From Pseudomonadota bacterium (GTDB taxonomy: Bacteria; Desulfobacterota; Desulfobacteria; Desulfobacterales; RPRI01): 34,053 nucleotides of DNA. Shown piece by piece: positions 1 to 18,032 of the stretch. A program made the position numbers and the translations under genes. The notes under the pieces were generated by a model that searched no databases, was not told the origin of the DNA, and was given only the letters and a program-made list of their open reading frames with translations. The stretch covers positions 1 through 34,053 of the forward strand of contig JBDRRF010000014.1 in assembly GCA_043825875.1 (NCBI GenBank). The letters run 5' to 3'. The number at the start of each line of letters is the position of its first letter. Positions within the stretch are counted from its first letter, which is position 1.

Positions 1-885
1 ATAGATAAGCTGCCCCACGGTCTCTTCAGGCTTTACTTTGAAGAATTCATAGAAAGAACGGCTGACCATGACCACCCGTAGGTCTTGATCCAGAGCTATC
101 AATGGTTCGCGCACAGTGTTGATGAGGCTCTCTGCGAATTCCCGGGCGGCATCTTCGGATATTTTGGTCACTTCCAGTTCTTTAAGGGCGTTTCTTTCTT
201 TTTTCAGTGCACTTTCTAAACCCTCACCCTTTAAAAAAAGCTCACGGCTTTTCTCTTCTAGGATAAGTTCTGCCTGCTTGCGGGCAAGTTTTTCCCGGTC
301 CAAACGGCGGCGCGATAAAGCTATCTCTTCACTCATGCAGCTCCCTTTAACTCGGGTGATCGTAAAGAGAGTTGCCCTGGAATTCCCTAGAACATTGTTT
401 CTGATCACTTTCATCTGCTCTCCGAAGTGTTCAAGACAACCGAGAATTAATCCTTCCGCAAGGTCCGGCAGGTTGCGATCGGACTCATAGGTCATTTCCA
501 AATGATCGGGAGTTGGGAAAATACACGAAAATGTCGGAAGTTCCGCATCCGGGTAAAGCTTTTTCACCTCGACATGTACAAAGCCGTCAACCTTCGGCAG
601 AAACTCAAAAGTTGAACTGGTCCCGTCAAAGAAGGCCGGAAACTTGGCGAAGAACTGCCGTAATAAATGTCTTCCGAATTCTTTGAGCAGATCCGGAACT
701 CCAATTTCTACGATCGTAGCCAGGTTGGAGACGAGCGTCACTATTTCACAATGGTCATATGTTCCGACCGACGTATAAATGCCCTTTGAGGGTAGGTCGG
801 AGCTTTCTATAAGCTGTTCGGCAATATCAGACGAGAACCGGCCCTCTACGAACTCGAAAAATTCTGTAAACACAACACCCTTCAT
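1..885 (-). CDS. Partial (runs off left edge) H-NOX heme-NO-binding domain fused to coiled coil and PAS domain; probable sensor kinase or other signalling protein
   Basis: Hand translation from ATG 885 (RBS ACAGGAGG): MKGVVFTEFFEFVE...YTSVGTYDH...VHVEVKKLYPDAELP...YESDR (proximal His, conserved Pro, YxSxR). No stop codon; frame continues into MSEEIALSRRRLDREKLARKQAELILEEKSREL and PAS-like AESLINTVREPLIALDQDLRVVMVSRSFYEFF. Not in ORF track because it has no stop in the window. Confidence 0.9.
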   Translation of the reverse strand, partial: MKGVVFTEFFEFVEGRFSSDIAEQLIESSDLPSKGIYTSVGTYDHCEIVTLVSNLATIVEIGVPDLLKEFGRHLLRQFFAKFPAFFDGTSSTFEFLPKVDGFVHVEVKKLYPDAELPTFSCIFPTPDHLEMTYESDRNLPDLAEGLILGCLEHFGEQMKVIRNNVLGNSRATLFTITRVKGSCMSEEIALSRRRLDREKLARKQAELILEEKSRELFLKGEGLESALKKERNALKELEVTKISEDAAREFAESLINTVREPLIALDQDLRVVMVSRSFYEFFKVKPEETVGQLIY

Positions 886-951
886 AGTCCCTCCTGTTGG
901 TGTGTTATTAAGAATAGTTTTCTGTCAAGTTGAAATATACGGCTTTTCAGA

Positions 952-975
952 ATTATCTGCAATATTATCTGCAAT
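952..975. repeat. Perfect 12-bp tandem direct repeat upstream of the H-NOX gene
   Basis: ATTATCTGCAAT at 952-963 and 964-975. Confidence 0.7.
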
Positions 976-1154
976 CGAAAATAATATAAATGATTGCGCA
1001 ATGAAATGACGTATTTCCGTCAAAATTGCCGGATGCTACATTACAAGGAAGAAGTTACATTTATAGTTATAAAGCGGTTATTCAATTCAATTGTTAATTC
1101 TTATTTAGCTTCAGCTTCAGCTTTCCCCTTTCTTATTCTTTTCTTCCCTGTCTT

Positions 1155-1245
1155 AATTAACCCCGCCGCCTGTTTATAATACTAACCATCACATCGTAAG
1201 CCTATCTGCGGTCAAGAGTTATTCTTCGGGCAATAATGGCATGTT
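1155..1245 (-). pseudogene. Decayed third copy of the [DE]RR-repeat microprotein gene
   Basis: acatcgtaagcctatctgcggtcaagagttattcttcgg resembles acatcgtaagcctgcctgcggtcaaggctgtttcttcgg in 4775..4990. Translates ARRITLDRR*AYDV versus DRRNSLDRRQAYDV (CAG to TAG at 1202-1204). Boundaries approximate. Confidence 0.7.
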
Positions 1246-1293
1246 TAGATAAATATAATCGGTTGCAAAATTTATAATTTTTATCTCAAACAG

Positions 1294-3756
1294 TTAATCG
1301 ATAACCACCGGTTTTATTCGCCAGATATGATCGCAGTATTCACTGATTGCGCGGTCTGAAGAAAATTTCCCCATCCTTGCTACGTTCAGCATGCTCATAC
1401 GAAGCCACTCCTCTTGCTTTAAATAGGTTTGAGCGACCTGCTCCTGGCAGGCGATATACAGCGGATAGTCTGCACACAGCATATACTCATCATGCTCGCG
1501 GAGCGTTTTTGTAAGCGGTATGAACATGTCACGGTCGCCGTGTGAGAAAAGGCCGCTTTCAATCAGTTCGATTGCCTCACGCAGCTCGTTGTTTGCCAGG
1601 ATTACATCCTGCGGGCGATAGCCTTCATGTCTTTTCTGAACCACTTCATTTGCAGTAAGGCCGAAAAGAAAGAAATTTTTGGCGCCAACTTCTTCGCGGA
1701 TTTCTACATTGGCGCCGTCCAGTGTACCTATCGTTAGCGCTCCATTTAAGGAGAATTTCATATTCCCTGTGCCGGAAGCTTCCTTTCCTGCAGTTGAAAT
1801 CTGTTCGGACAGATCGGCTGCGGGAAAGACTCGATACGCATTTTTCACGTTGAAATTTGGAAGAAAGGCTACCTTTAGCAGATCGGCTGCTTTAGTTTCG
1901 TTGTTGATCACATCGGCAATGGAGTGAATAAGTTTAATAATCAGCTTTGCCATAAAATATCCGGGCGCGGCTTTACCGCTGAAGATGACCGTGCGAGGTG
2001 GCATGTCCTGCGTCTGCCCTTTCATGATACGGTTATAAAGGGTGATAACATGCAGTACATTAAGATGCTGTCTCTTGTATTCGTGAATTCTTTTGGCCTG
2101 GATGTCAAAGAGCGAATCCGGGTTTGTTACAATACCTGTGCGATTTATGATGATTTCAGCAAGGAGCGCCTTGTTTTGGCGTTTGATTGCGCGCCATTGA
2201 TCAAGAAAAGATGAGTCTTTAGTGCATGCTTCTAATTTCTTGAGTTGGGATAGATCCTTGATCCATCCGTCACCTATGCACTCTGATATTAGCAAAGCAA
2301 GTTTGGGGTTGGAAGCAAGGACAAAGCGGCGCGGTGTAACGCCGTTTGTTACGTTCGTAAATTTTTCCGGAGTGATATGATTAAAGTCGTTTAAAACCAG
2401 TTTGCGTAAAAGTTCGGTATGCATTTGTGCAACGCCGTTTATTTTATGGCTGCCGATACAGGCCAGATTTGCCATTCGCACATAATGCTCTCCACCTTCA
2501 TCAATTATGGAAAGCCGCTGGATCAAGTTTTCATCGTCCGGGTAGTTTATGCGAATATCATCTAAGAAACGCCGGTTAATTTCATAGATGATTTCCATGT
2601 GACGCGGTAGAATAATCTTAAAGAGTGGTACGGACCATTTTTCCAGTGCCTCTGACAACAGCGTATGATTGGTGTAGCAGAAGGTTCTTCTTGTAATATC
2701 CCATGCATTGTCCCATTCCATGTTATAAACATCGACTAAAAGGCGCATTAATTCAGCAACACCGATTGCCGGGTGTGTATCATTAAGTTGGATAGTGTAT
2801 TTTTCATGAAATTTATCTATCGTTTTTTCCCGTTGGAAGTATATGCGGATCATGTCCTGCAGGGCGCAGGAAACGAAAAAGAACTGTTGCATCAGCCGCA
2901 GCTGCCTGCCTGCAAGTGGCTCGTCATTGGGGTAGAGTACCTTGGTAAGGTTTTCCGATCCGATCTTGTCATGAACTGCACCATAGTAATCGCCGATATT
3001 GAAAGATTTAAAATCAAAAGACATGGTTGCTTCCGCCTTAAACAGGCGCAACATTATGACAGAATGCGAGCGATAACCGGTAATCATTGTATCATAGGCA
3101 ACGCCGCGCACACTATGATCGGGTATCCAGTTGACACGGTATTCTCCGGAATCTTCATATTTACTTTCCGTATAACCGCCGAAGGGAATATCGTAGATAA
3201 TTTCCGGACGCGCCACTTCCCACGGATTTCCCTTGCGCAGCCACTGGTCGGCAACCTCCACCTGCCAGCCGTCCCGGATTTCCTGCGTGAAGATGCCGAA
3301 TTCATAACGGATGCCATAGCCTATAGACGGGATATTGAGTGTTGCAAGTGAGTCCAGATAGCAGGCGGCAAGCCGCCCAAGTCCTCCGTTTCCTAAGCCC
3401 GGTTCTTCTTCCTGATCTATGAGTTCCTGTAAATCCAGCCCAAGTTCAGAAACGGCCTGTTTTACCTCTTCATAGATGCCTAGGTTGATCATATTATTTT
3501 CCAGTAATGGTCCGAGAAGAAATTCTGCCGAGAGATAGCAAACGGTTCTGCTTGCTTTCTGATAGTAGGTACGTGCTGTTTTCGCCCATTGCGCCAATAT
3601 CCGGTCGCGAATAGCATAGGCGACAGCAAGATAGTAGTCATTTTTAGATGCAACGGGTGCAAAGCGGCCCTGAACGCAAATAAGATTGTCGAGAATAGAT
3701 TGTTTAATCTCTGCCACATCGCTGCCGGTTCTAACTATGCATGTCAAATTTTCCAT
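1294..3756 (-). CDS. glgP: Glycogen/starch/alpha-glucan phosphorylase (GT35), paralog 1
   Basis: GLGNGGLGRLAAC, QLNDTHP, KRIHEYKRQ, PLP-lysine motif EASGTGNMKF. Start chosen at ATG 3756 (RBS AAAGGA). Confidence 0.96.
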   Translation of the reverse strand: MENLTCIVRTGSDVAEIKQSILDNLICVQGRFAPVASKNDYYLAVAYAIRDRILAQWAKTARTYYQKASRTVCYLSAEFLLGPLLENNMINLGIYEEVKQAVSELGLDLQELIDQEEEPGLGNGGLGRLAACYLDSLATLNIPSIGYGIRYEFGIFTQEIRDGWQVEVADQWLRKGNPWEVARPEIIYDIPFGGYTESKYEDSGEYRVNWIPDHSVRGVAYDTMITGYRSHSVIMLRLFKAEATMSFDFKSFNIGDYYGAVHDKIGSENLTKVLYPNDEPLAGRQLRLMQQFFFVSCALQDMIRIYFQREKTIDKFHEKYTIQLNDTHPAIGVAELMRLLVDVYNMEWDNAWDITRRTFCYTNHTLLSEALEKWSVPLFKIILPRHMEIIYEINRRFLDDIRINYPDDENLIQRLSIIDEGGEHYVRMANLACIGSHKINGVAQMHTELLRKLVLNDFNHITPEKFTNVTNGVTPRRFVLASNPKLALLISECIGDGWIKDLSQLKKLEACTKDSSFLDQWRAIKRQNKALLAEIIINRTGIVTNPDSLFDIQAKRIHEYKRQHLNVLHVITLYNRIMKGQTQDMPPRTVIFSGKAAPGYFMAKLIIKLIHSIADVINNETKAADLLKVAFLPNFNVKNAYRVFPAADLSEQISTAGKEASGTGNMKFSLNGALTIGTLDGANVEIREEVGAKNFFLFGLTANEVVQKRHEGYRPQDVILANNELREAIELIESGLFSHGDRDMFIPLTKTLREHDEYMLCADYPLYIACQEQVAQTYLKQEEWLRMSMLNVARMGKFSSDRAISEYCDHIWRIKPVVID

Positions 3757-3853
3757 GACCGTTCCTTTTAGGCTTTTCCGGCAAATTAGCATCCGGATTA
3801 ATCAGGTTACGAAGTAGAAAAGTATAATTCTCCAGTTTCTCTCAAAAGACTAC

Positions 3854-3975
3854 TGTCACGTCAACTATGAAATGTACCAACCTGTCATTTCGACCAACGG
3901 GAGAAATCTTTATAAATCTCTTAAAAGCAAGATCTCTCCTTTCAGTCGAGATGACAAATGATGCATGACACGACA
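3854..3975. mobile_element. MITE-like element with imperfect terminal inverted repeats, 4-bp flanking direct repeat and internal REP-like palindrome
   Basis: CTAC|TGTCACGTCA ... TGACACGACA|CTAC (TIR 8/10). Internal stems TGTCATTTCGAC/GTCGAGATGACA and GGAGAAATCTT/AAGATCTCTCC. Confidence 0.7.
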
Positions 3976-4000
3976 CTACTCGCGCTTGTTCAAAGAATTC

Positions 4001-4657
4001 CTATGTTTCAGGATAGTTGTCCAAATAAAGTTCGAGCGCACGGGAGAGGGATGATAGAAATGCCACTTGTTTTCGATTACGAACCATACGCAAGACATAC
4101 CATACTACTACGAACATTCCCACCAGCCAAATCATACCCACAATCCTATTGATCATTGCCGGACTCAAAAGACTGTGCAAGAGTTCTGAAAACAATTTTC
4201 CATGATCGTCTTCAGAAACCAGTTTGATTAGCCCCCACCAAATCGTTATGCTGCTCAATAATAGTGCAGACTTACCCAGGGCTGATCTGCCCAGGATTGC
4301 CAAGGGATGGTAATCGCCCTTAAGCCCGGCCAATTCCATCATGGTCAATTTATGGTAGTGATGCAACTGGTCATATTCATATTTTTGAAAGAATTCAAAC
4401 AAGGTCACTATAGCACAAGCGTCTTCGCAGAAGGTGCTTTCATATTTTTGATACGTTGCCGGTTTACCGTTATCGTCATGATAGTTTTTTTCCACCTCAC
4501 TGCGGATAAGCAAAACGTCCGGATGGTGTTTTGAAACCTTGTTTTGTTTTAGGTATGAGCGGGCTTCGTTAAGAAATTTCAGAAAATCTGCAATCTGATC
4601 TGCCCATGTTTTATAAACCATAGTTGATTTGAACTGTTTCATATACGACTCCAACAT
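4001..4657 (-). CDS. Hypothetical membrane protein (two C-terminal hydrophobic helices)
   Basis: 218-aa ORF with hydrophobic segments ALLLSSITIWWGLI and IVGMIWLVGMFVVVWYVL; no family recognised. Confidence 0.65.
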   Translation of the reverse strand: MLESYMKQFKSTMVYKTWADQIADFLKFLNEARSYLKQNKVSKHHPDVLLIRSEVEKNYHDDNGKPATYQKYESTFCEDACAIVTLFEFFQKYEYDQLHHYHKLTMMELAGLKGDYHPLAILGRSALGKSALLLSSITIWWGLIKLVSEDDHGKLFSELLHSLLSPAMINRIVGMIWLVGMFVVVWYVLRMVRNRKQVAFLSSLSRALELYLDNYPET

Positions 4658-4774
4658 GATTTGTATTAAACGGCAGTTTTAATGAGATGTAAATCGGATT
4701 GGAAACATTTATTAGGTTCAGATTAAATTAAAAGTAATCAATAGGTATCAGCTCAATATATTTAAAAAACGAAG

Positions 4775-4990
4775 TCAGACGAAATAAGATGAAACAAAAA
4801 TACTGCTCCACTTATTTGTTCTCATCCAACCTTTTCGCTGTTCTCCATTTTTTCTTCTATCAAAGGCCGGTCTTCGACGTTCCTGACCTAATATATCTGT
4901 GGCTATAACATCGTAAGCCTGCCTGCGGTCAAGGCTGTTTCTTCGGTCAATATCAGCGCGTTCCCGTCTGTCTGGTCTTAAATTATCCAT
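4775..4990 (-). CDS. 71-aa Arg-rich [DE]RR-repeat microprotein, copy A
   Basis: Intact paralog at 12376..12591 (44/71 identical by hand alignment, same length); RBS GAGG; conserved upstream promoter. Confidence 0.85.
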   Translation of the reverse strand: MDNLRPDRRERADIDRRNSLDRRQAYDVIATDILGQERRRPAFDRRKNGEQRKGWMRTNKWSSIFVSSYFV

Positions 4991-5045
4991 AATAAGATTT
5001 CCTCATGGTAATATAAATGTAACAGTTTTTTACCGAATAGAAATT

Positions 5046-5074
5046 ATCTTAACAGATTACAATTTGCTTTTCAA
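5046..5074 (-). promoter_or_regulatory. sigma70-like promoter for microprotein copy A
   Basis: TTGAAA-17 bp-TAAGAT with extended TGT; same architecture upstream of copy B. Confidence 0.6.
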
Positions 5075-5098
5075 GCGTCAAAATTAATATTTCTTGGT

Positions 5099-5125
5099 AT
5101 ATCGGCATGTTTTCAAGAAAGGTTA
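5099..5125 (-). promoter_or_regulatory. sigma28 (FliA)-like promoter upstream of microprotein copy A
   Basis: TAAC-N15-GCCGATAT versus consensus TAAA-N15-GCCGATAA. Confidence 0.5.
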
Positions 5126-5163
5126 AGAGGTATTTAGAATGAATGGTTTTATTATGCTCATCT

Positions 5164-6765
5164 TTATTTGATTTTTACGTCGCTTAAGTCTTGATAGAGT
5201 TGTTTGTTATACGAAAAAATGAGTCCTTCCTCAAAATCGATTTGCCCTTCTTTATATAATTTTGCAAGGGACACATCGATAGACATAAATTCTTCACATC
5301 CGGTTTCCATCTGGGAGCGGATCTGATGCAGTTTGCCTTCCCGTATCAGGTTTCCTACCCGATTCGAATTTGAGAAGCGTTCCAACACCAGAAGCTGTTT
5401 GCTTTTGTCTTTATTGAGTACCAGACGTTGTGCTAAAGAAAGCAGCAGAGTGTCCGCCAATAACATGCTGATCAGGTTTTGCTGATTTTCCGGGAACATG
5501 TTTACTATTATGCGAATTACTGCTGTGGAATTAGCGGCATTCATAGTGCTTAGAACAAGGCTGCCGGTTCCGGCGGCTCTTAAAGCAATTTCAAAAGATT
5601 CAGTATCACGCAATTCACCAATGACTACCACATCAGGGGATTGCCGGAAAACAGAGCGCAAACCTATGGCAAAACTTTGGGTATCTCTGCCGATTTCCCG
5701 CTGGTTGACATTACTTTTTTTGTGTTTGTGCAGATATTCTACCGGATCTTCCAAAGTGATAATATTGCATTGCCGGTTTGTATTGATGATATCTATCATG
5801 GAGCAAAGGGTCGTTGATTTTCCATGGCCGGCCGGGCCGGATATGATTATCAGGCCATGAGGTTTTAATGCATAATTTTTTATCCATTCAGGAAGGTTGA
5901 GTTCTCCCATTGTGGGAAGGTTGTCGTACAGACGACGAATATTAATGGATACGGATTTTCTTTGTTTATAAAAATTAATTCTGAAACGGCCTGTATTCGG
6001 ATATGTTACTGCTATGTCCAAATCATTGGTCTGCTGGAATTTTACCCAGCCGGAAGCATTGTTACTTAAAAGCTCTTTGGCATATAATTCACAATCAGCA
6101 GGGGTTAAGGAAGCACTCGACAGTCGTTTGACCTGATTGCTTACTTTAATGGACGGTGGGACTCCTGCCGTCAGCAGCATGTCGGTAGCCCCTGTTTTGA
6201 CAAGATAGGCCAGAAGCGATTCGATTTTGGGAGAAGAATGGGCTTCACTTTTATCTTGCAGTGCTATAGCCTTGATTGTCTTACCAATGACATCATTACC
6301 ATAATTTGAAGATAAAAAGTTAAGTGCTGCCTCCATCATAAAAAACGGTACCACCACGGGTTTGATTTTGATTCCCATTGTAAATTCCAGATCGCTGACT
6401 ACCCCAAAATCATGGGGGCTGACCATGCCAAGAGTAAGGATATTGCTTTCTTTGGATATGGGAAGAATTTTATATTGTTTGATCTGGTTTAGTGGAATTA
6501 ATTTAATTATTTCATGAGGAATGTTGATACCAAACAAGTTAATATGGGGCACGCCAAATTTTTTCGACAGAAATTTCAGCATATTATCGGTTGACACAAA
6601 ACCCATCTTTATAAGAAGCGAGCCTATGGGCATGTCAACCTGAGACCGTCTGGCAAGGGCTTTTTTAAGTTGTTCTTTTGTTATGAGTTTGGAGCTGACA
6701 AGTTCTTCTCCAATAAGGCCTTTAATACTTAGAGAAGTACTGCTGCTCTTTGGTTCGACCGGCAT
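5164..6765 (-). CDS. PilT/PilU-family type IV pilus ATPase with N-terminal MshEN/GSPII_N-like domain
   Basis: N-terminal LIGEELVSSKLITKEQLKKAL...PIGSLLIKMGFV; GRFRINFY, Walker A GPAGHGKST, ITLEDPVEY, NQREIG, PDVVVIGELRD, and AIRNLIRE-like RVGNLIRE. Confidence 0.88.
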   Translation of the reverse strand: MPVEPKSSSTSLSIKGLIGEELVSSKLITKEQLKKALARRSQVDMPIGSLLIKMGFVSTDNMLKFLSKKFGVPHINLFGINIPHEIIKLIPLNQIKQYKILPISKESNILTLGMVSPHDFGVVSDLEFTMGIKIKPVVVPFFMMEAALNFLSSNYGNDVIGKTIKAIALQDKSEAHSSPKIESLLAYLVKTGATDMLLTAGVPPSIKVSNQVKRLSSASLTPADCELYAKELLSNNASGWVKFQQTNDLDIAVTYPNTGRFRINFYKQRKSVSINIRRLYDNLPTMGELNLPEWIKNYALKPHGLIIISGPAGHGKSTTLCSMIDIINTNRQCNIITLEDPVEYLHKHKKSNVNQREIGRDTQSFAIGLRSVFRQSPDVVVIGELRDTESFEIALRAAGTGSLVLSTMNAANSTAVIRIIVNMFPENQQNLISMLLADTLLLSLAQRLVLNKDKSKQLLVLERFSNSNRVGNLIREGKLHQIRSQMETGCEEFMSIDVSLAKLYKEGQIDFEEGLIFSYNKQLYQDLSDVKIK

Positions 6766-6800
6766 TAATTAATCTCCTTATCTATTCGCATTAAGGATAT

Positions 6801-7706
6801 TTACCTTAATGCAATGACCCGATTCCGTCCTGTTTCTTTAGCAAGATAAAGTGCTTCATCCGCCTTTTTTAGCATTGAATCGGCCGAATCTTTATTGTCT
6901 TTGCACTCGTATACACCAATGCTGACGGTAATTCTGATAGGATCGGTGACATTAAAGCTGTGCTCTTTTTTTTCTATTATTTTCCTGATGCGTTCTGCCA
7001 GTAAAGTTGCTGAATCAAGATTGGTTTCAGGCAGAATGCAGCAGAATTCCTCTCCGCCAAACCTTACCAGAAAATCATTATTTCTTACCATAGATGATAT
7101 TTCATCGGCAATCGATTTTAAAACCAAATCTCCTGTTTGATGACCATACATATCATTTACGTTTTTAAAATGATCAATATCAATCATCATAAGGCTCATA
7201 GATCTACAGCAACGGTTGTGTTTTTCCAATTCATCTTCAAGTTTGGTGGAAAGAAATCGCCTGTTATAGGCTCCGGTCAGACTGTCTCTGAGATTCATCT
7301 CAATAAGTTTTTTTTCGTAGATTGCAAGTTGGGTAACATCCTGGACCGTGATACAGATGTGCGTTATAGATTCATTTTCACCGCGAACCGGACAGATGGA
7401 ACAGCTTTGCTGCATGAATTCAAACTGCGACTGAAAGGAGCTATAGGTTTTTATCGGGAAAAGATATGGATGCATTTTCCGGGAAATGTAATTGATATTG
7501 CCGAATTTTAAAGAGGACTTAAAATTACGCAAAAAGGCAGGAGTATTTAAATTCGGAAATAAATTGAGAATATCTGATCCGATAATCGAATCTTGTTTGA
7601 TACCGCTATGAACACTCATCCAATTATTCCAATACCGGATATGCATATTCTTATCCAGTATAATTACTCCGATATTCAATGTGTTTAAAATATTATCAAA
7701 ATTCAT
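6801..7706 (-). CDS. PAS-domain diguanylate cyclase (GGDEF)
   Basis: N-terminal PAS (GVIILDKNMHIRYWN), DSLTGAYNRR, DIDHFKNVND, I-site RNND five residues before active site GGEEF. Confidence 0.95.
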   Translation of the reverse strand: MNFDNILNTLNIGVIILDKNMHIRYWNNWMSVHSGIKQDSIIGSDILNLFPNLNTPAFLRNFKSSLKFGNINYISRKMHPYLFPIKTYSSFQSQFEFMQQSCSICPVRGENESITHICITVQDVTQLAIYEKKLIEMNLRDSLTGAYNRRFLSTKLEDELEKHNRCCRSMSLMMIDIDHFKNVNDMYGHQTGDLVLKSIADEISSMVRNNDFLVRFGGEEFCCILPETNLDSATLLAERIRKIIEKKEHSFNVTDPIRITVSIGVYECKDNKDSADSMLKKADEALYLAKETGRNRVIALR

Positions 7707-8350
7707 TCGTATTGACTCAAAAAAGTCTGGAGTGCCTGTTTGAGCCAGCTAACGGATTCATGGCTTGTGACAAGAAATAGACATCCGGTAGCGCTGTTGC
7801 TGCTGAAGTGAAAGATTGTACGAAGTATAATAACGATATTTCTGGGATCTGACATGTCATCTGATAATGCCCTGTCTGCCAGATTCCCGGTGATGATCCG
7901 CGGAGGGGAATAGTTTACAACATCTCCAAGAAGTTCGGCAATTTTTCCGACGCAAGCCCCGATCAGTATATTACCTACTTCAAGCAACAAGTCTTCTTCA
8001 AGCATTCCCATAGGGTCCGATTCAAGAATTTCTTCATCCAATTCCTTACCAAGAACGGATAATAATCCTTTGCCTGCTCCAAGTGTAAAAATAAGCAGCG
8101 CGAGTCCCTTAAATTTTGAGAAGAAATTCTGCTCGACTATAGTAATATTGTTATGATCCTTTATTTCGGATTTGATATGTTCGAGAAGATCAGATGTTTT
8201 TAAAACTGAAATTGTGGGCACGCTTAAAACAACATACAGGTCGATGACCTCGGAAATATCGGCTGCGGCAGACCCAAAGCCTATATTCATTATTTCCTGG
8301 AGGGTATCTCTTTCTTCTTCTGTTAGTACTTCCTGCTCATTATTATTCAT
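7703..8350 (-). CDS. CheC-family phosphatase
   Basis: Two ExxN motifs (DTLQEIMNIG; LLEVGNILIG); 4-bp overlap with the cyclase gene. Confidence 0.88.
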   Translation of the reverse strand: MNNNEQEVLTEEERDTLQEIMNIGFGSAAADISEVIDLYVVLSVPTISVLKTSDLLEHIKSEIKDHNNITIVEQNFFSKFKGLALLIFTLGAGKGLLSVLGKELDEEILESDPMGMLEEDLLLEVGNILIGACVGKIAELLGDVVNYSPPRIITGNLADRALSDDMSDPRNIVIILRTIFHFSSNSATGCLFLVTSHESVSWLKQALQTFLSQYE

Positions 8351-8353
8351 AGG

Positions 8354-8728
8354 TTATTTCTGCTTCCGGTATTGAGCCAAATCGGCAAAGAGCTTTGCTA
8401 CCGCCTCCTTTGATGGTGGTTTTTTCAGAAATGCAAAAGCACCCAGTGACATTACCCTTTCTTTTGTAATTGGCTGAACATCCGCACTCGATACGATGAC
8501 AATCGCATCCGGGTAGCTTTTTTTGATCTTTTCCAGTACTTCCATGCCGTTCATTTCGGGCATGGTTAAATCAGTTATGGTAATATCGGGATAAATTGTT
8601 TCAAACCGTTGCAGCCCACTTATGCCGTCCCCTTCTTCAAAAAGCTCCATAGGTTCATCCTTCGGGATACAACTCTTGAGAATTTTCCGGGCTACGGGTG
8701 AATCGTCGATAATTAGAATCTTTTGCAT
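8354..8728 (-). CDS. Single-domain CheY-like response regulator
   Basis: IIDDS, phospho-acceptor ITDLTMPEMNG, SSA, KKP; RBS CAGGAG. Confidence 0.93.
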   Translation of the reverse strand: MQKILIIDDSPVARKILKSCIPKDEPMELFEEGDGISGLQRFETIYPDITITDLTMPEMNGMEVLEKIKKSYPDAIVIVSSADVQPITKERVMSLGAFAFLKKPPSKEAVAKLFADLAQYRKQK

Positions 8729-12375: not shown

Positions 12376-12591
12376 TCAAGTGGAAAAAACCGATACAGGG
12401 ACACTGATCCACTTATTAATTCTTGTCCAATCTTTTCGTAATTCTCCGTTTTTTCTTCTTTCAAAGGTTGGTCTCCGACGTTCCTGGCCCAATATATCCA
12501 CAACTAAAACATCATAAGACTGCCTGCGTTCAAGAGTTCTTCTTCGGTCAACTTCAGAGCGTTTATGCGTGCTTGGTCTTAAATTATCCAT
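12376..12591 (-). CDS. 71-aa Arg-rich [DE]RR-repeat microprotein, copy B
   Basis: Paralog of 4775..4990; G-rich RBS; shared downstream TATATTTAAAAAAC. Confidence 0.85.
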   Translation of the reverse strand: MDNLRPSTHKRSEVDRRRTLERRQSYDVLVVDILGQERRRPTFERRKNGELRKDWTRINKWISVPVSVFST

Positions 12592-15048: not shown

Positions 15049-17529
15049 TTATTCTTTAAGCACAGGCCATGGCTCAGTATGCCATATATCACGATTATAT
15101 TCCATAATAGTTCTGTCGGATGAAAACTTGCCCATTCTTGCAATATTTAATATTGCTTTTTTGCTCCATGCGTCCTGATCTCTGTACAGGGAATCAACTT
15201 CCCTCTGGCAATTAAAATACGCCTCGAAATCGGCAAGAATGAAATATCTGTCATCATTAAGCAGCAAATTGACAAGATCATGGAATATATCAGGCTCTTC
15301 AGGGCTGAAGAAACCATTACGGATAAGTTCTATCGTTTTAACAAGAAGAGGATCTTTCTCATAGTATTCGCGAGGATTATAGCTTTGACGATTGTCGGCT
15401 ACTTCATCCGCAGTTAAGCCGAATATAAATATATTTTCCCTGCCGACTTCTTCCATGATTTCTATGTTTGCTCCGTCAAGCGTACCTACAGTGAGTGCCC
15501 CATTTAGAGCAAATTTCATATTGGAAGTGCCCGAAGCTTCCAGGCCGGCAGTTGAAATCTGCTGGGAGACATCAGCGGCAGGAAAGATCTTTTCGGCCAG
15601 TGAGACCCGATAGTTTGGAATAAATACTACTTTTATAATATTATTTGTTGATGTGTCACGATTTACCATTTCGGCAACATGGCAAATAAGCCGGATAATG
15701 GTTTTTGCCGTTATATATCCGGGAGCAGCTTTGCCGCCAAAGATAAACGTTCGGGGGTGCATCGAAAAATTCGTATCCTCTTTGAGTTTTAACCAGCAGT
15801 AGATTATATGAATAACATTTAAGAGCTGTCTTTTGTATTCATGAATTCTTTTCACCTGGATATCAAAAATAGAATTAGGACTAGCTATGATACCGGTTTG
15901 GTTTTTTATGATTTTTGCAAGCCGTTTTTTATTGTAAAGCTTTACAGCTTTTAATTCTTTTATAAAATCGGGATCTTCTGCAAAGGGCTCAATTTTTCTA
16001 AGCTGCTCAAGATCTTTCGCCCATTCGTTTCCTATTCTTAAAGTAATAAGTTCGGATAATTTAGGGTTAGAGGCAAGCAGCCATCTTCGGGGAGTAATTC
16101 CATTTGTTTTGTTATTGAACTTACCCGGATACATTATATCAAAATCTTTTAATTTACTTTCCTTCAGCAGTTTGCTGTGAAGCGCAGCTACTCCGTTTAC
16201 AGAGTGCGAGCCTACGATTGCAAGATGAGCCATACGAATTCTCTTTTCAGAATCTTCTCCAACAATGGACATTCTTTGCAATTTGTTTTCATCACCCAGA
16301 TAACGAACCGAAACGTCTCTTAAAAACCGACGGTTTATTTCATATATTATTTGCAGGTGCCGGGGCAGAAGTGATTCAAACATGGTTACCGGCCATTTCT
16401 CAAGAGCTTCCGAAAGAAGTGTATGGTTAGTATAGGCGCATGACTTTTCGGTAATATCCCATGCGGTTTCCCAGTCAAGGCCGTGTTGATCGAGAAAAAG
16501 GCGCATAAGTTCGGGGATTGCAAGGGCAGGGTGGGTGTCGTTCATCTGTATAGCTACTTTTTCGGGAAATTCATCAAAAGAATCATGATTTACCAGATAC
16601 CTCCTGATTATATCCTGAATTGAGCAGGAAACGAAAAAGTATTCCTGTTTAAGTCTCAACTCTCTTCCGACAAACAACTCATCGTTTGGATAAAGTACTT
16701 TTGAGATATTTTCGGAGATATTTTTTTCTTCAACCGCTTTTAGATAATTGCCATGCTGGAAATATTGAAGATCAAATTCTTTTGAGGCTCTTGCCGACCA
16801 GAGCCGTAAAGTATTTACTGTGTTATTTGCATAGCCGGATATTGGAGTGTCATAGGCAATGCCAACTAAATCATTAGTATCAATCCATTCGGTTTTAAGT
16901 TTCCCGTCAGGCAGGATAATTTGTTTTATTTTGCCGTAGAATTTGACCGTAAAACTGTATTCGGGTCTGGCGATTTCCCATGGGTTTGTATATTTGAGCC
17001 AATTTTCAGGAAGCTCGACCTGGCCGAGATTTCTTATAGCCTGATCGAAAATGCCGAACTCATATCTTATGCCGTAGCCATATGCAGGAATTTCAAGGGT
17101 TGCCATTGAATCAAGAAAACAGGAAGCAAGCCTCCCAAGACCACCGTTTCCCAGTCCCATATCCGGCTCATTTTCTACAAGCTCTTCCATCTCAATATTG
17201 AGTTCATCCATGGCTTTTTTTGATTCGTTATAAATTTCCAGATTAATCAGGTTATTAATAAGCAGGCGACCCATGAGGTATTCGGCAGAAAGATAATATA
17301 CTCTTTTAACATCATGATTATAATAAAGCTGCTGAGTACGTATCCAGCGCTCAATAAGACGGTCTCTGGCAGAAAGTGCGAGAGAAAGATACAGATCACG
17401 ATCGGTTGCAGTATATTGATCTTTAGAAAGGGAATATTCAAGATGGTTCGCAAAAGATATCTGTATGCTTTTCCAATCCGTTCCTTTATTAAAGGTGCCC
17501 CATTTATGAAACAGCGTACTTTTTTTCAT
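15049..17529 (-). CDS. glgP: Glycogen/starch/alpha-glucan phosphorylase (GT35), paralog 2
   Basis: GLGNGGLGRLASC, QMNDTHP, KRIHEYKRQ, EASGTSNMKF. Start chosen at ATG 17529 (RBS GAGG). Confidence 0.96.
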   Translation of the reverse strand: MKKSTLFHKWGTFNKGTDWKSIQISFANHLEYSLSKDQYTATDRDLYLSLALSARDRLIERWIRTQQLYYNHDVKRVYYLSAEYLMGRLLINNLINLEIYNESKKAMDELNIEMEELVENEPDMGLGNGGLGRLASCFLDSMATLEIPAYGYGIRYEFGIFDQAIRNLGQVELPENWLKYTNPWEIARPEYSFTVKFYGKIKQIILPDGKLKTEWIDTNDLVGIAYDTPISGYANNTVNTLRLWSARASKEFDLQYFQHGNYLKAVEEKNISENISKVLYPNDELFVGRELRLKQEYFFVSCSIQDIIRRYLVNHDSFDEFPEKVAIQMNDTHPALAIPELMRLFLDQHGLDWETAWDITEKSCAYTNHTLLSEALEKWPVTMFESLLPRHLQIIYEINRRFLRDVSVRYLGDENKLQRMSIVGEDSEKRIRMAHLAIVGSHSVNGVAALHSKLLKESKLKDFDIMYPGKFNNKTNGITPRRWLLASNPKLSELITLRIGNEWAKDLEQLRKIEPFAEDPDFIKELKAVKLYNKKRLAKIIKNQTGIIASPNSIFDIQVKRIHEYKRQLLNVIHIIYCWLKLKEDTNFSMHPRTFIFGGKAAPGYITAKTIIRLICHVAEMVNRDTSTNNIIKVVFIPNYRVSLAEKIFPAADVSQQISTAGLEASGTSNMKFALNGALTVGTLDGANIEIMEEVGRENIFIFGLTADEVADNRQSYNPREYYEKDPLLVKTIELIRNGFFSPEEPDIFHDLVNLLLNDDRYFILADFEAYFNCQREVDSLYRDQDAWSKKAILNIARMGKFSSDRTIMEYNRDIWHTEPWPVLKE

Positions 17530-18032
17530 GGTTTTCCTCATTTTTTTTAAAGCAATCTTGTTAACAACAATCAATCTTGATGCCTTCACAAAAAGGTCTG
17601 GTTTTTATCGAAGGTTGTATATAACAAATAAAGCAGCAAAAAGCGGGCCAAATTAGAATAGCGACTAATTTGCTTAATTTAATAGTATTTATTAATTTCA
17701 ATATTCGCAATCACTGTTTTGATTATAAATTATTGAAAATATATGTCATTAATTTGACATAAAACAGGGAGGTAGTTGATATGCCATATTATTTTAAATA
17801 ATAGAAGATCAGGCAAATTCAACCTAACCCTAATACGGTGCTAAATTATCATAAGCCTTTTATCGAACTTCCTGCAAACGTGTAATTATTGCTGATATAA
17901 TAATCCGTATAATGCTGACATGCAAGAACAATCCAATTTAATTATCTTTACGAATGGGTTTTGATTTTTAATCGGCATTATGGTACCAGAGAATCTATAA
18001 CATTTATCATATGAGATTGGAGGAAAATATAG

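Follow-up and report, generated by a model that had tools for sequence, protein, structure and literature searches.

Published work describes two-protein NO sensors in which an H-NOX protein is paired with a diguanylate cyclase, namely SwH-NOX with SwDGC in Shewanella woodyi, Hnox1 with Lpg1057 in Legionella pneumophila, and H-NOX with Dgc1 in Dinoroseobacter shibae (PMC8846402). According to this literature, H-NOX of split systems binds NO and alters how active the adjacent cyclase or kinase is (PMC8846402; PMC12329717), the two reading frames overlap in the Caulobacter hnoX-hnoK cassette (PMC12329717), obligate anaerobes have H-NOX fused to MCPs (PMC8738867), and HNOB occurs with GGDEF proteins in a census (PMC8846402).

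The locus described here belongs to a groundwater bacterium with a metagenome-assembled draft genome (G000; 118 contigs, 4.77 Mb). The window, by which we mean the whole 34,053-nt stretch of DNA analysed, has its base 1 at the end of contig C14, and the ORF listing places at this end one minus-strand ORF (885..1, 295 codons) that starts at ATG 885-883 and is stop-free up to base 1, as the first-pass annotation had read it. Since window base 1 is the C14 end, the gene is truncated by the assembly and not by the window. Pfam matches and the structural model give the order H-NOX, long helix and first half of a PAS domain, and the following minus-strand features were assigned:

343..885 (-), H-NOX (haem NO-binding) moiety, codons 1-181 (Pfam HNOB, homology, model)
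333..348 (-), putative fossil gene boundary (sequence, shifted frame, nucleotide count against relatives)
169..336 (-), putative partner-derived N-terminal signalling helix, residues 184-239 (identity to partners, motif, model)
1..219 (-), linker and first half of PAS, cut by the contig end (Pfam PAS, homology, partner alignment)

The helix part and the linker/PAS part overlap at about residues 223-239, the crossover zone. Pfam HNOB (PF07700) matched residues 2-160 with an E value of 5.4e-36 and 124.4 bits against a cut-off of 25.5. The Pfam PAS match extends from residue 252 to the truncation at 295, and its 18.8 bits lie below the cut-off of 22.6, as expected for a half-domain. The first-pass annotation had assigned 183 codons to H-NOX; the domain is upheld by the HNOB match, but homology stops at codon 181.

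The AlphaFold2 model showed an H-NOX fold with pLDDT 93-98 over residues 1-180, and the best Foldseek matches of this part were the NO-sensing H-NOX structures 6bde (E 3.6e-17, TM 0.88 on target) and 6ocv. When the 295-residue model was searched, Foldseek found no solved structure matching past the H-NOX domain; the model helix over 244-283 belongs to the truncated PAS half and is not to be trusted. H104, P117, Y133, S135 and R137 are present in the window H-NOX, are invariant or nearly so in alignments of 20, 98 and 80 sequences, and align to identical residues of 6ocv. We take H104 to be the proximal histidine, P117 the conserved proline, and Y-x-S-x-R (133-137) the haem-propionate motif. 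A genome search showed that a second H-NOX is absent from G000.

Compared with the two-protein systems, the window likewise has an H-NOX of the NO-sensing type, 38% identical to S. woodyi 6ocv, beside what is most likely a GGDEF enzyme, and its closest relatives show the same two-gene layout with a GGDEF partner. Unlike those systems, sensor and enzyme share one frame here, a PAS domain is present, and EAL is absent as far as contig C90 (the probable continuation of the gene, see below) shows. The fusion is a variant of the known two-protein NO/c-di-GMP sensor and not a new kind of system. The overlap of the hnoX stop with the partner start in Caulobacter resembles the proposed ancestor of the window gene and the layout of a close relative (L103) and of 14 out of 59 motif-bearing metagenome loci; hnoX-hnoK, unlike the window, stays two genes and has a hybrid histidine kinase as output. 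With the MCP-fused proteins (Tt H-NOX; 1u4h/1u55) the window gene has in common that H-NOX lies at the N-terminus and is linked covalently to a signalling output, but the former are membrane-bound and O2-binding and only 22-23% identical to the window H-NOX, and Pfam detected no MCP domain in either the 295-residue protein or the C90 fragment.

Animal soluble guanylate cyclase beta (6jt0, 6jt2, 8hbe) is likewise built from H-NOX, PAS-type, coiled-coil and nucleotide cyclase modules, a likeness that the first-pass annotation had pointed out. The H-NOX parts superpose (TM 0.54-0.55 on query, ~185 columns), and no likeness was found beyond them. Their order is H-NOX, helix, PAS in the window versus H-NOX, PAS, helix in soluble guanylate cyclase; the catalytic domain would be GGDEF, given the proposed join to C90, versus a class III cyclase; and neither HNOBA nor class III cyclase (Guanylate_cyc) matched the window protein or the C90 fragment in Pfam. 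The likeness thus shrinks to a shared list of modules.

The junction and the split state of relatives

At the junction the sequence is GTT AAA GGG AGC TGC ATG AGT. A Shine-Dalgarno-like AAAGGGAG is present at 348-341 (-), before an internal ATG at 336-334 (codon 184), in agreement with the ribosome-binding site and start that had been proposed for this position. The junction codons Ser182-Cys183 occupy 342-337 (-), and the former H-NOX stop TGA, at 335-333 (-), lies one base out of frame and overlaps the partner ATG. Translation of 344-333 (-) one base later yields Gly-Ala-Ala-stop, with TGA over ATG. Gly-Ala-Ala is the true C-terminus in 5 of the 18 closest relatives (G008, another genome of the genus, counted) and in their consensus, and L103 has the corresponding DNA layout, which bears out the ancestral ATGA overlap suggested by the first-pass annotation. 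Ser182-Cys183 are what the shift of frame left of the old H-NOX C-terminus.

Concordantly, the distance from the Lys codon to ATGAG is 9 nt in the window versus 8 nt in G008, L103 and a contig of run X4, and the partner ATG is offset by 549 (frame 0) in the window versus 548 (frame 2) in G008. The exact one-G-shorter sequence was not found among the relatives with DNA, which differ at several of the 8 nt. The three marks of a recent fusion by stop loss at a stop/start overlap are thus all present: orthologues are split, a change in length brings the frames into line, and the fused frame still contains a ribosome-binding site with its start codon. Searches before the internal ATG found no promoter, nor was a minus-strand promoter-like site found, and the terminator-like matches inside the ORF are consensus matches only. 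Programmed frameshifting and phase variation were considered and dropped, as the fused frame requires no shift; a run of three Gs is too short for either.

A side observation concerns cysteines. Cys46 of the window (748-750 (-)) is Gly, Ala, Glu, Asp or Val in the 17 closest relatives and G008, and Asn in the more distant P0004. Together with the frameshift-made Cys183 it gives the fused protein two cysteines that are absent from relatives.

A protein search with the 295-aa query covered 41 related genomes including G000, 16 of them other genomes of the genus. Only one of these 16, G008, gave a strong H-NOX match (about 83-84% identity), and this match has a TAG inside it: an H-NOX of 181 codons is followed by TAG, 2 nt, and the ATG of a 382-aa gene whose product starts with MSEEI and is helix-GAF-GGDEF according to Pfam. 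In L103 (79% identity) a stand-alone H-NOX ends in Lys-Gly-Ala-Ala-TGA, overlapping the ATG-Ser-Asp-Glu-Ile of the partner. The X4 contig, from an unrelated sediment metagenome, aligns over 345-754 and then has TAG, 2 nt, ATG and Asn-Glu-Glu-Ile, a split state read from the loose end of the contig. The partner therefore starts directly downstream in all three, with MSEEI, MSDEI and MNEEI in G008, L103 and X4, respectively. Moreover, in a collection of 5.8 billion proteins, the 17 closest proteins were stand-alone without exception (179-195 aa, 75-91% identity), and the C-termini of the closest relatives end within two residues of window codon 181-183. The H-NOX part alone was covered by 119 of the 120 best matches, P0004 (49% identity) being the exception.

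At 78 of 80 metagenome H-NOX loci the frame measures 147-186 aa; of the others, one (L125) is fused and 789 aa long, and one has 239 aa. Genes bearing the partner motif (see below) follow downstream at 59 of the 80 loci, with gaps of -28 to +234 nt and a 4-nt overlap in 14. At three loci (L107, L109, L139) the motif-bearing partner lies 174-234 nt downstream, neither abutting nor overlapping. Tight coupling of H-NOX and partner is common without being universal.

Order-wide, HNOB matched in 9 of 201 genomes including G000, and all 5 other full-length H-NOX matches of the order were unfused in these 201 genomes (stop-to-stop frames of 180-247 aa). No further genome or sample was found to carry the fused allele: runs X2, X4 and X15 hold relatives or the PAS repeat only, and X15, from the same study, has no coverage of the junction. 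Judged from these comparisons, the fusion is specific to this lineage. The orthologous loci, split in G008, L103, X4 and all 17 closest proteins, thus agree with the recent one-base fusion that the first-pass annotation had claimed, and the same old fusion does not recur in many relatives, the fused forms found being distant (41-49% identity) and different in output.

The partner half and the missing C-terminal end

The partner is encoded immediately downstream of H-NOX, within one transcription unit and by now within one frame. Its first 56 residues are 70% identical to the start of the G008 partner and 77% identical to the helix-GAF-GGDEF protein P0274. The dN/dS values after divergence from G008 are 0.092/0.776 for the H-NOX part and 0.245/1.138 for the helix, so that both have been under purifying selection. 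The helix carries a motif of R, E, R, A, E and E, six positions that are invariant in 54 partner N-termini (window plus 53); this motif was defined from alignment A3 in the present analysis and not from the literature. The model predicts one continuous helix over residues 183-239 (57 residues, pLDDT 79-87) with the junction at its start.

The same N-terminal helix opens all 41 partner ORFs scanned. These comprise 12 GGDEF enzymes, either bare or combined with GAF or PAS (the latter in L104 and L119), 22 kinases, 2 PAS-GGDEF-EAL proteins, 4 truncated ORFs in which PAS or PAS-GAF alone is visible, and 1 without Pfam domain.

In the alignment, the sequence switches from the GAF-type partner to a PAS family near ...RKEL.... 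As one unbranched contig of X1, the likely source run, spans this switch, the helix-to-PAS join is no assembly chimera. The partner half is thus a mosaic, in which the helix of a helix-GAF-GGDEF enzyme is joined to a widespread PAS module, and by the same comparison the lineage has undergone two changes, exchange of the partner body and loss of the stop. The protein search did not find a split helix-PAS-GGDEF orthologue with the same PAS family; its single match was of the GAF type, which is weak evidence of absence.

The PAS module itself is found with 66-92% protein identity in metagenome-assembled genomes labelled with many different phyla (loci L024-L101), an unusually strong likeness for PAS, and with at least 85% nucleotide likeness in four metagenomes at a depth of 100-1000 over window 1-140. 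Members of this family often occur in 2-4 tandem copies in kinases (L027; G010:C12). When contigs were scanned with all 295 aa, this module dominated the matches, and H-NOX was present in 1 of 79 loci (L023, 50% identity). L027, which came up as a match spanning both parts, was rejected as a multi-PAS kinase without H-NOX.

In G000 the PAS family occurs at just two places, with PAS residues 1-61 at the C14 start and residues 88-136 at the C90 end, leaving a gap of exactly 26 residues; the genome has no contigs below 2 kb. The community-wide repetition of this PAS, with its high depth and its presence in many phyla, explains the assembly break at the C14 end. Beyond the PAS half, C90 encodes a GGDEF domain (E 1.9e-52) in which both the GGDEF motif and the upstream RxxD are intact, followed by a stop. 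In a related genome, one open frame (G011:C132) covers both PAS halves together with this GGDEF and shares 95% identity with the C90 part. The missing end is therefore most likely C90, which would supply the second PAS half and an intact GGDEF by complementarity of the two contig ends. The joined protein would read H-NOX-helix-PAS-GGDEF with about 540 aa, possibly with extra PAS repeats. For the output domain, which the first-pass annotation had proposed to seek by extending the contig to the left, GGDEF is thus the candidate, given the proposed C14-C90 join.

A different output, with further PAS repeats leading for example into a histidine kinase and C90 belonging to another gene, would fit the 2-4 tandem repeats of this PAS family in kinases of relatives (L027, and a 920-aa open frame in G010), the repeat depth that breaks assemblies over window 1-140, and the missing contigs of less than 2 kb. 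We consider it unlikely, however, as just two contig ends carry the family, these hold complementary halves separated by 26 residues, and G011:C132 unites both halves with a GGDEF at 95% identity to C90.

Altogether, we consider it likely that the window holds a real and recent one-base fusion with an exchanged partner body, whose protein most likely ends in the PAS-GGDEF of C90. The ancestor would have been a two-gene operon, in which an H-NOX of about 183 aa ended in Gly-Ala-Ala with its TGA over the next ATG, and the gene after it coded for a diguanylate cyclase with a conserved helix over its first ~50 residues. A single G added to a GG run (net +1 nt) would have brought the frames into register and removed the stop, tethering H-NOX via Ser-Cys-Met to the N-terminus of the helix. 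In the same lineage the partner body would have been exchanged, such that the helix now leads into a PAS of the widespread family instead of GAF. Binding of NO to the ferrous haem would change the shape of H-NOX, and this change could pass through helix and PAS to the GGDEF dimer and alter c-di-GMP synthesis. In characterised split systems cyclase activity is lowered by NO-bound H-NOX. From the kept ribosome-binding site and ATG (codon 184) a sensor-less form may also be made. On this reading, the full-length product would be a single-chain diguanylate cyclase responsive to NO, with the helix as carrier of the signal.

Fused H-NOX proteins and alternative readings

The background on which the first-pass annotation had relied, that proteobacterial H-NOX is usually stand-alone and that the described anaerobe fusions are to MCPs, holds in part: relatives are mostly split, but fusions to proteins other than MCPs exist in databases. 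Among the best 150 matches, 5 of 109 H-NOX-type representatives were fused. The protein search gave 5 fused proteins of more than 517 aa at 41-47% identity, and 1-2 of the 80 metagenome loci were fused. Besides P0004, the fused forms, whose partners are kinases, PP2C phosphatases or GGDEF-EAL proteins, include:

P0008 and P0010, H-NOX fused to helix-SpoIIE/PP2C
P0021, P0271 and P0270, H-NOX fused to kinases
P0052 and L125, H-NOX fused to PAS-kinase
P0273 (1210 aa), PAS-PAS-GGDEF-EAL-receiver chain with C-terminal H-NOX, the reverse of the usual order

The partner helix motif follows H-NOX in P0004, P0008, P0010, P0021 and P0052. Fusions to the same helix motif thus arose repeatedly and independently, implying that tethering is structurally tolerated. 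Like the window, the database fusions hold H-NOX in one chain with its usual type of neighbour enzyme; they differ from it in being 41-49% identical, in having other outputs or another domain order, and in lacking equally close split relatives. None of the database fusions found has an N-terminal H-NOX-helix-PAS-GGDEF arrangement. Going by these searches, the window architecture appears to be rarer than the literature suggests, without being unique. The textbook description of H-NOX as stand-alone or MCP-fused is corrected to this extent, in that H-NOX is also fused, though rarely, to kinases, to PP2C phosphatases and to c-di-GMP enzymes.

Fusion of the genes of partner proteins is a common process. 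The fusion at this locus could be real and still be a neutral or mildly harmful accident, with the cell relying on the internally initiated partner while the tethered H-NOX is inert, misfolded or decaying. The allele is known from a single genome, the partner has kept its Shine-Dalgarno-like site and ATG such that its old form could still be made, and the patchy distribution of H-NOX (1 of 16 other genus genomes; 9 of 201 of the order including G000) marks it as dispensable. These points are outweighed, in our judgement, by the conserved H-NOX residues, which are all intact with no visible decay, by the independent fusions to the same helix motif elsewhere, which have linkers of about 10 to about 50 residues, and by the model, in which an unbroken helix begins at the junction. 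We therefore regard an accident of this kind as improbable, and prefer a fusion in which H-NOX would act on the tethered cyclase.

The first-pass annotation had named a sequencing indel as the alternative to a fusion. Over 112-1200, a 3772-nt Logan contig of X1 at depth 33 matches the window without a difference or a gap, and thus reproduces the junction letter for letter; Logan is a second assembler run on the same data as the draft genome, drops rare variants, and yields contigs, not raw reads. This second assembly excludes an assembler or polishing slip over 112-1200 but not a minority allele. GGG is not an error-prone homopolymer for short-read consensus. That the true genome instead reads GG with separate genes and an ATGA overlap, the extra G being an error or a minority allele introduced by sequencing, consensus or binning, is very improbable given the letter-identical contig. 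In its favour, the difference amounts to one base within a short run of Gs in a metagenome-assembled draft of 118 contigs, the likely source is the sole run containing the stretch, and with contigs rather than raw reads compared a systematic error or a minority split allele remains conceivable. The frame stays open for at least 112 further codons and has the conserved partner residues, as it also would after an error.

Taken as a real fusion, the locus is a snapshot of two interacting signalling proteins becoming one, with the old boundary still readable and with split orthologues at 79-91% identity as natural controls, and the conserved partner helix marks the point where sensor and enzyme meet. 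Tentatively, and with less than even confidence, we propose that the helix that opens the partners may be a universal docking or control element for bacterial H-NOX, to whose N-terminus the natural single chains fix the H-NOX C-terminus. The outputs over which this reading extends are GGDEF, GAF-GGDEF, PAS-GGDEF-EAL, histidine kinase and PP2C phosphatase. If it is true, the gene and its split twins at 79-91% identity form a matched tethered/free pair for NO-signal transfer, and the fusion, produced by a change of one base, would be a bacterial counterpart of the animal NO receptor. A limited literature search returned no mapped interface between a stand-alone H-NOX and its kinase or cyclase, which the printed literature may hold.

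Upstream region and neighbourhood

Upstream of the fused gene, one further feature was assigned:

886..1027 (-), non-coding stretch shared with relatives, probable promoter or leader of the H-NOX operon (X2 and X4 contigs)

The alignment of the X2 and X4 contigs includes a 12-nt deletion at 952 and stops at 1026-1027; a search of the minus strand for sigma-70-like sites gave none. Further upstream, a conserved non-coding element of ~48 nt occurs on the plus strand at 1188-1235, 4905-4952 and 12510-12534 (3 mismatches); these three copies, all on this contig, are the only ones in G000. Two of them precede minus-strand genes by 250-300 nt, namely the H-NOX fusion and a 218-aa ORF without Pfam family. 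Read on the minus strand, the element contains a TTGACC-like hexamer; an Rfam family was not found in window 1-5200.

The neighbourhood of H-NOX is not shared with G008, where the gene is flanked by a 351-aa membrane protein and a receiver protein. A c-di-GMP-related cluster at 5167-8728 (-) encodes a receiver domain, a CheC-like protein, a PAS-GGDEF cyclase and a T2SSE-type ATPase with MshEN, a domain that binds c-di-GMP. Two full-length glycogen/carbohydrate phosphorylase genes (1297-3792 (-) and 15052-17589 (-)) lie within 14 kb, one of them directly upstream of the H-NOX fusion.
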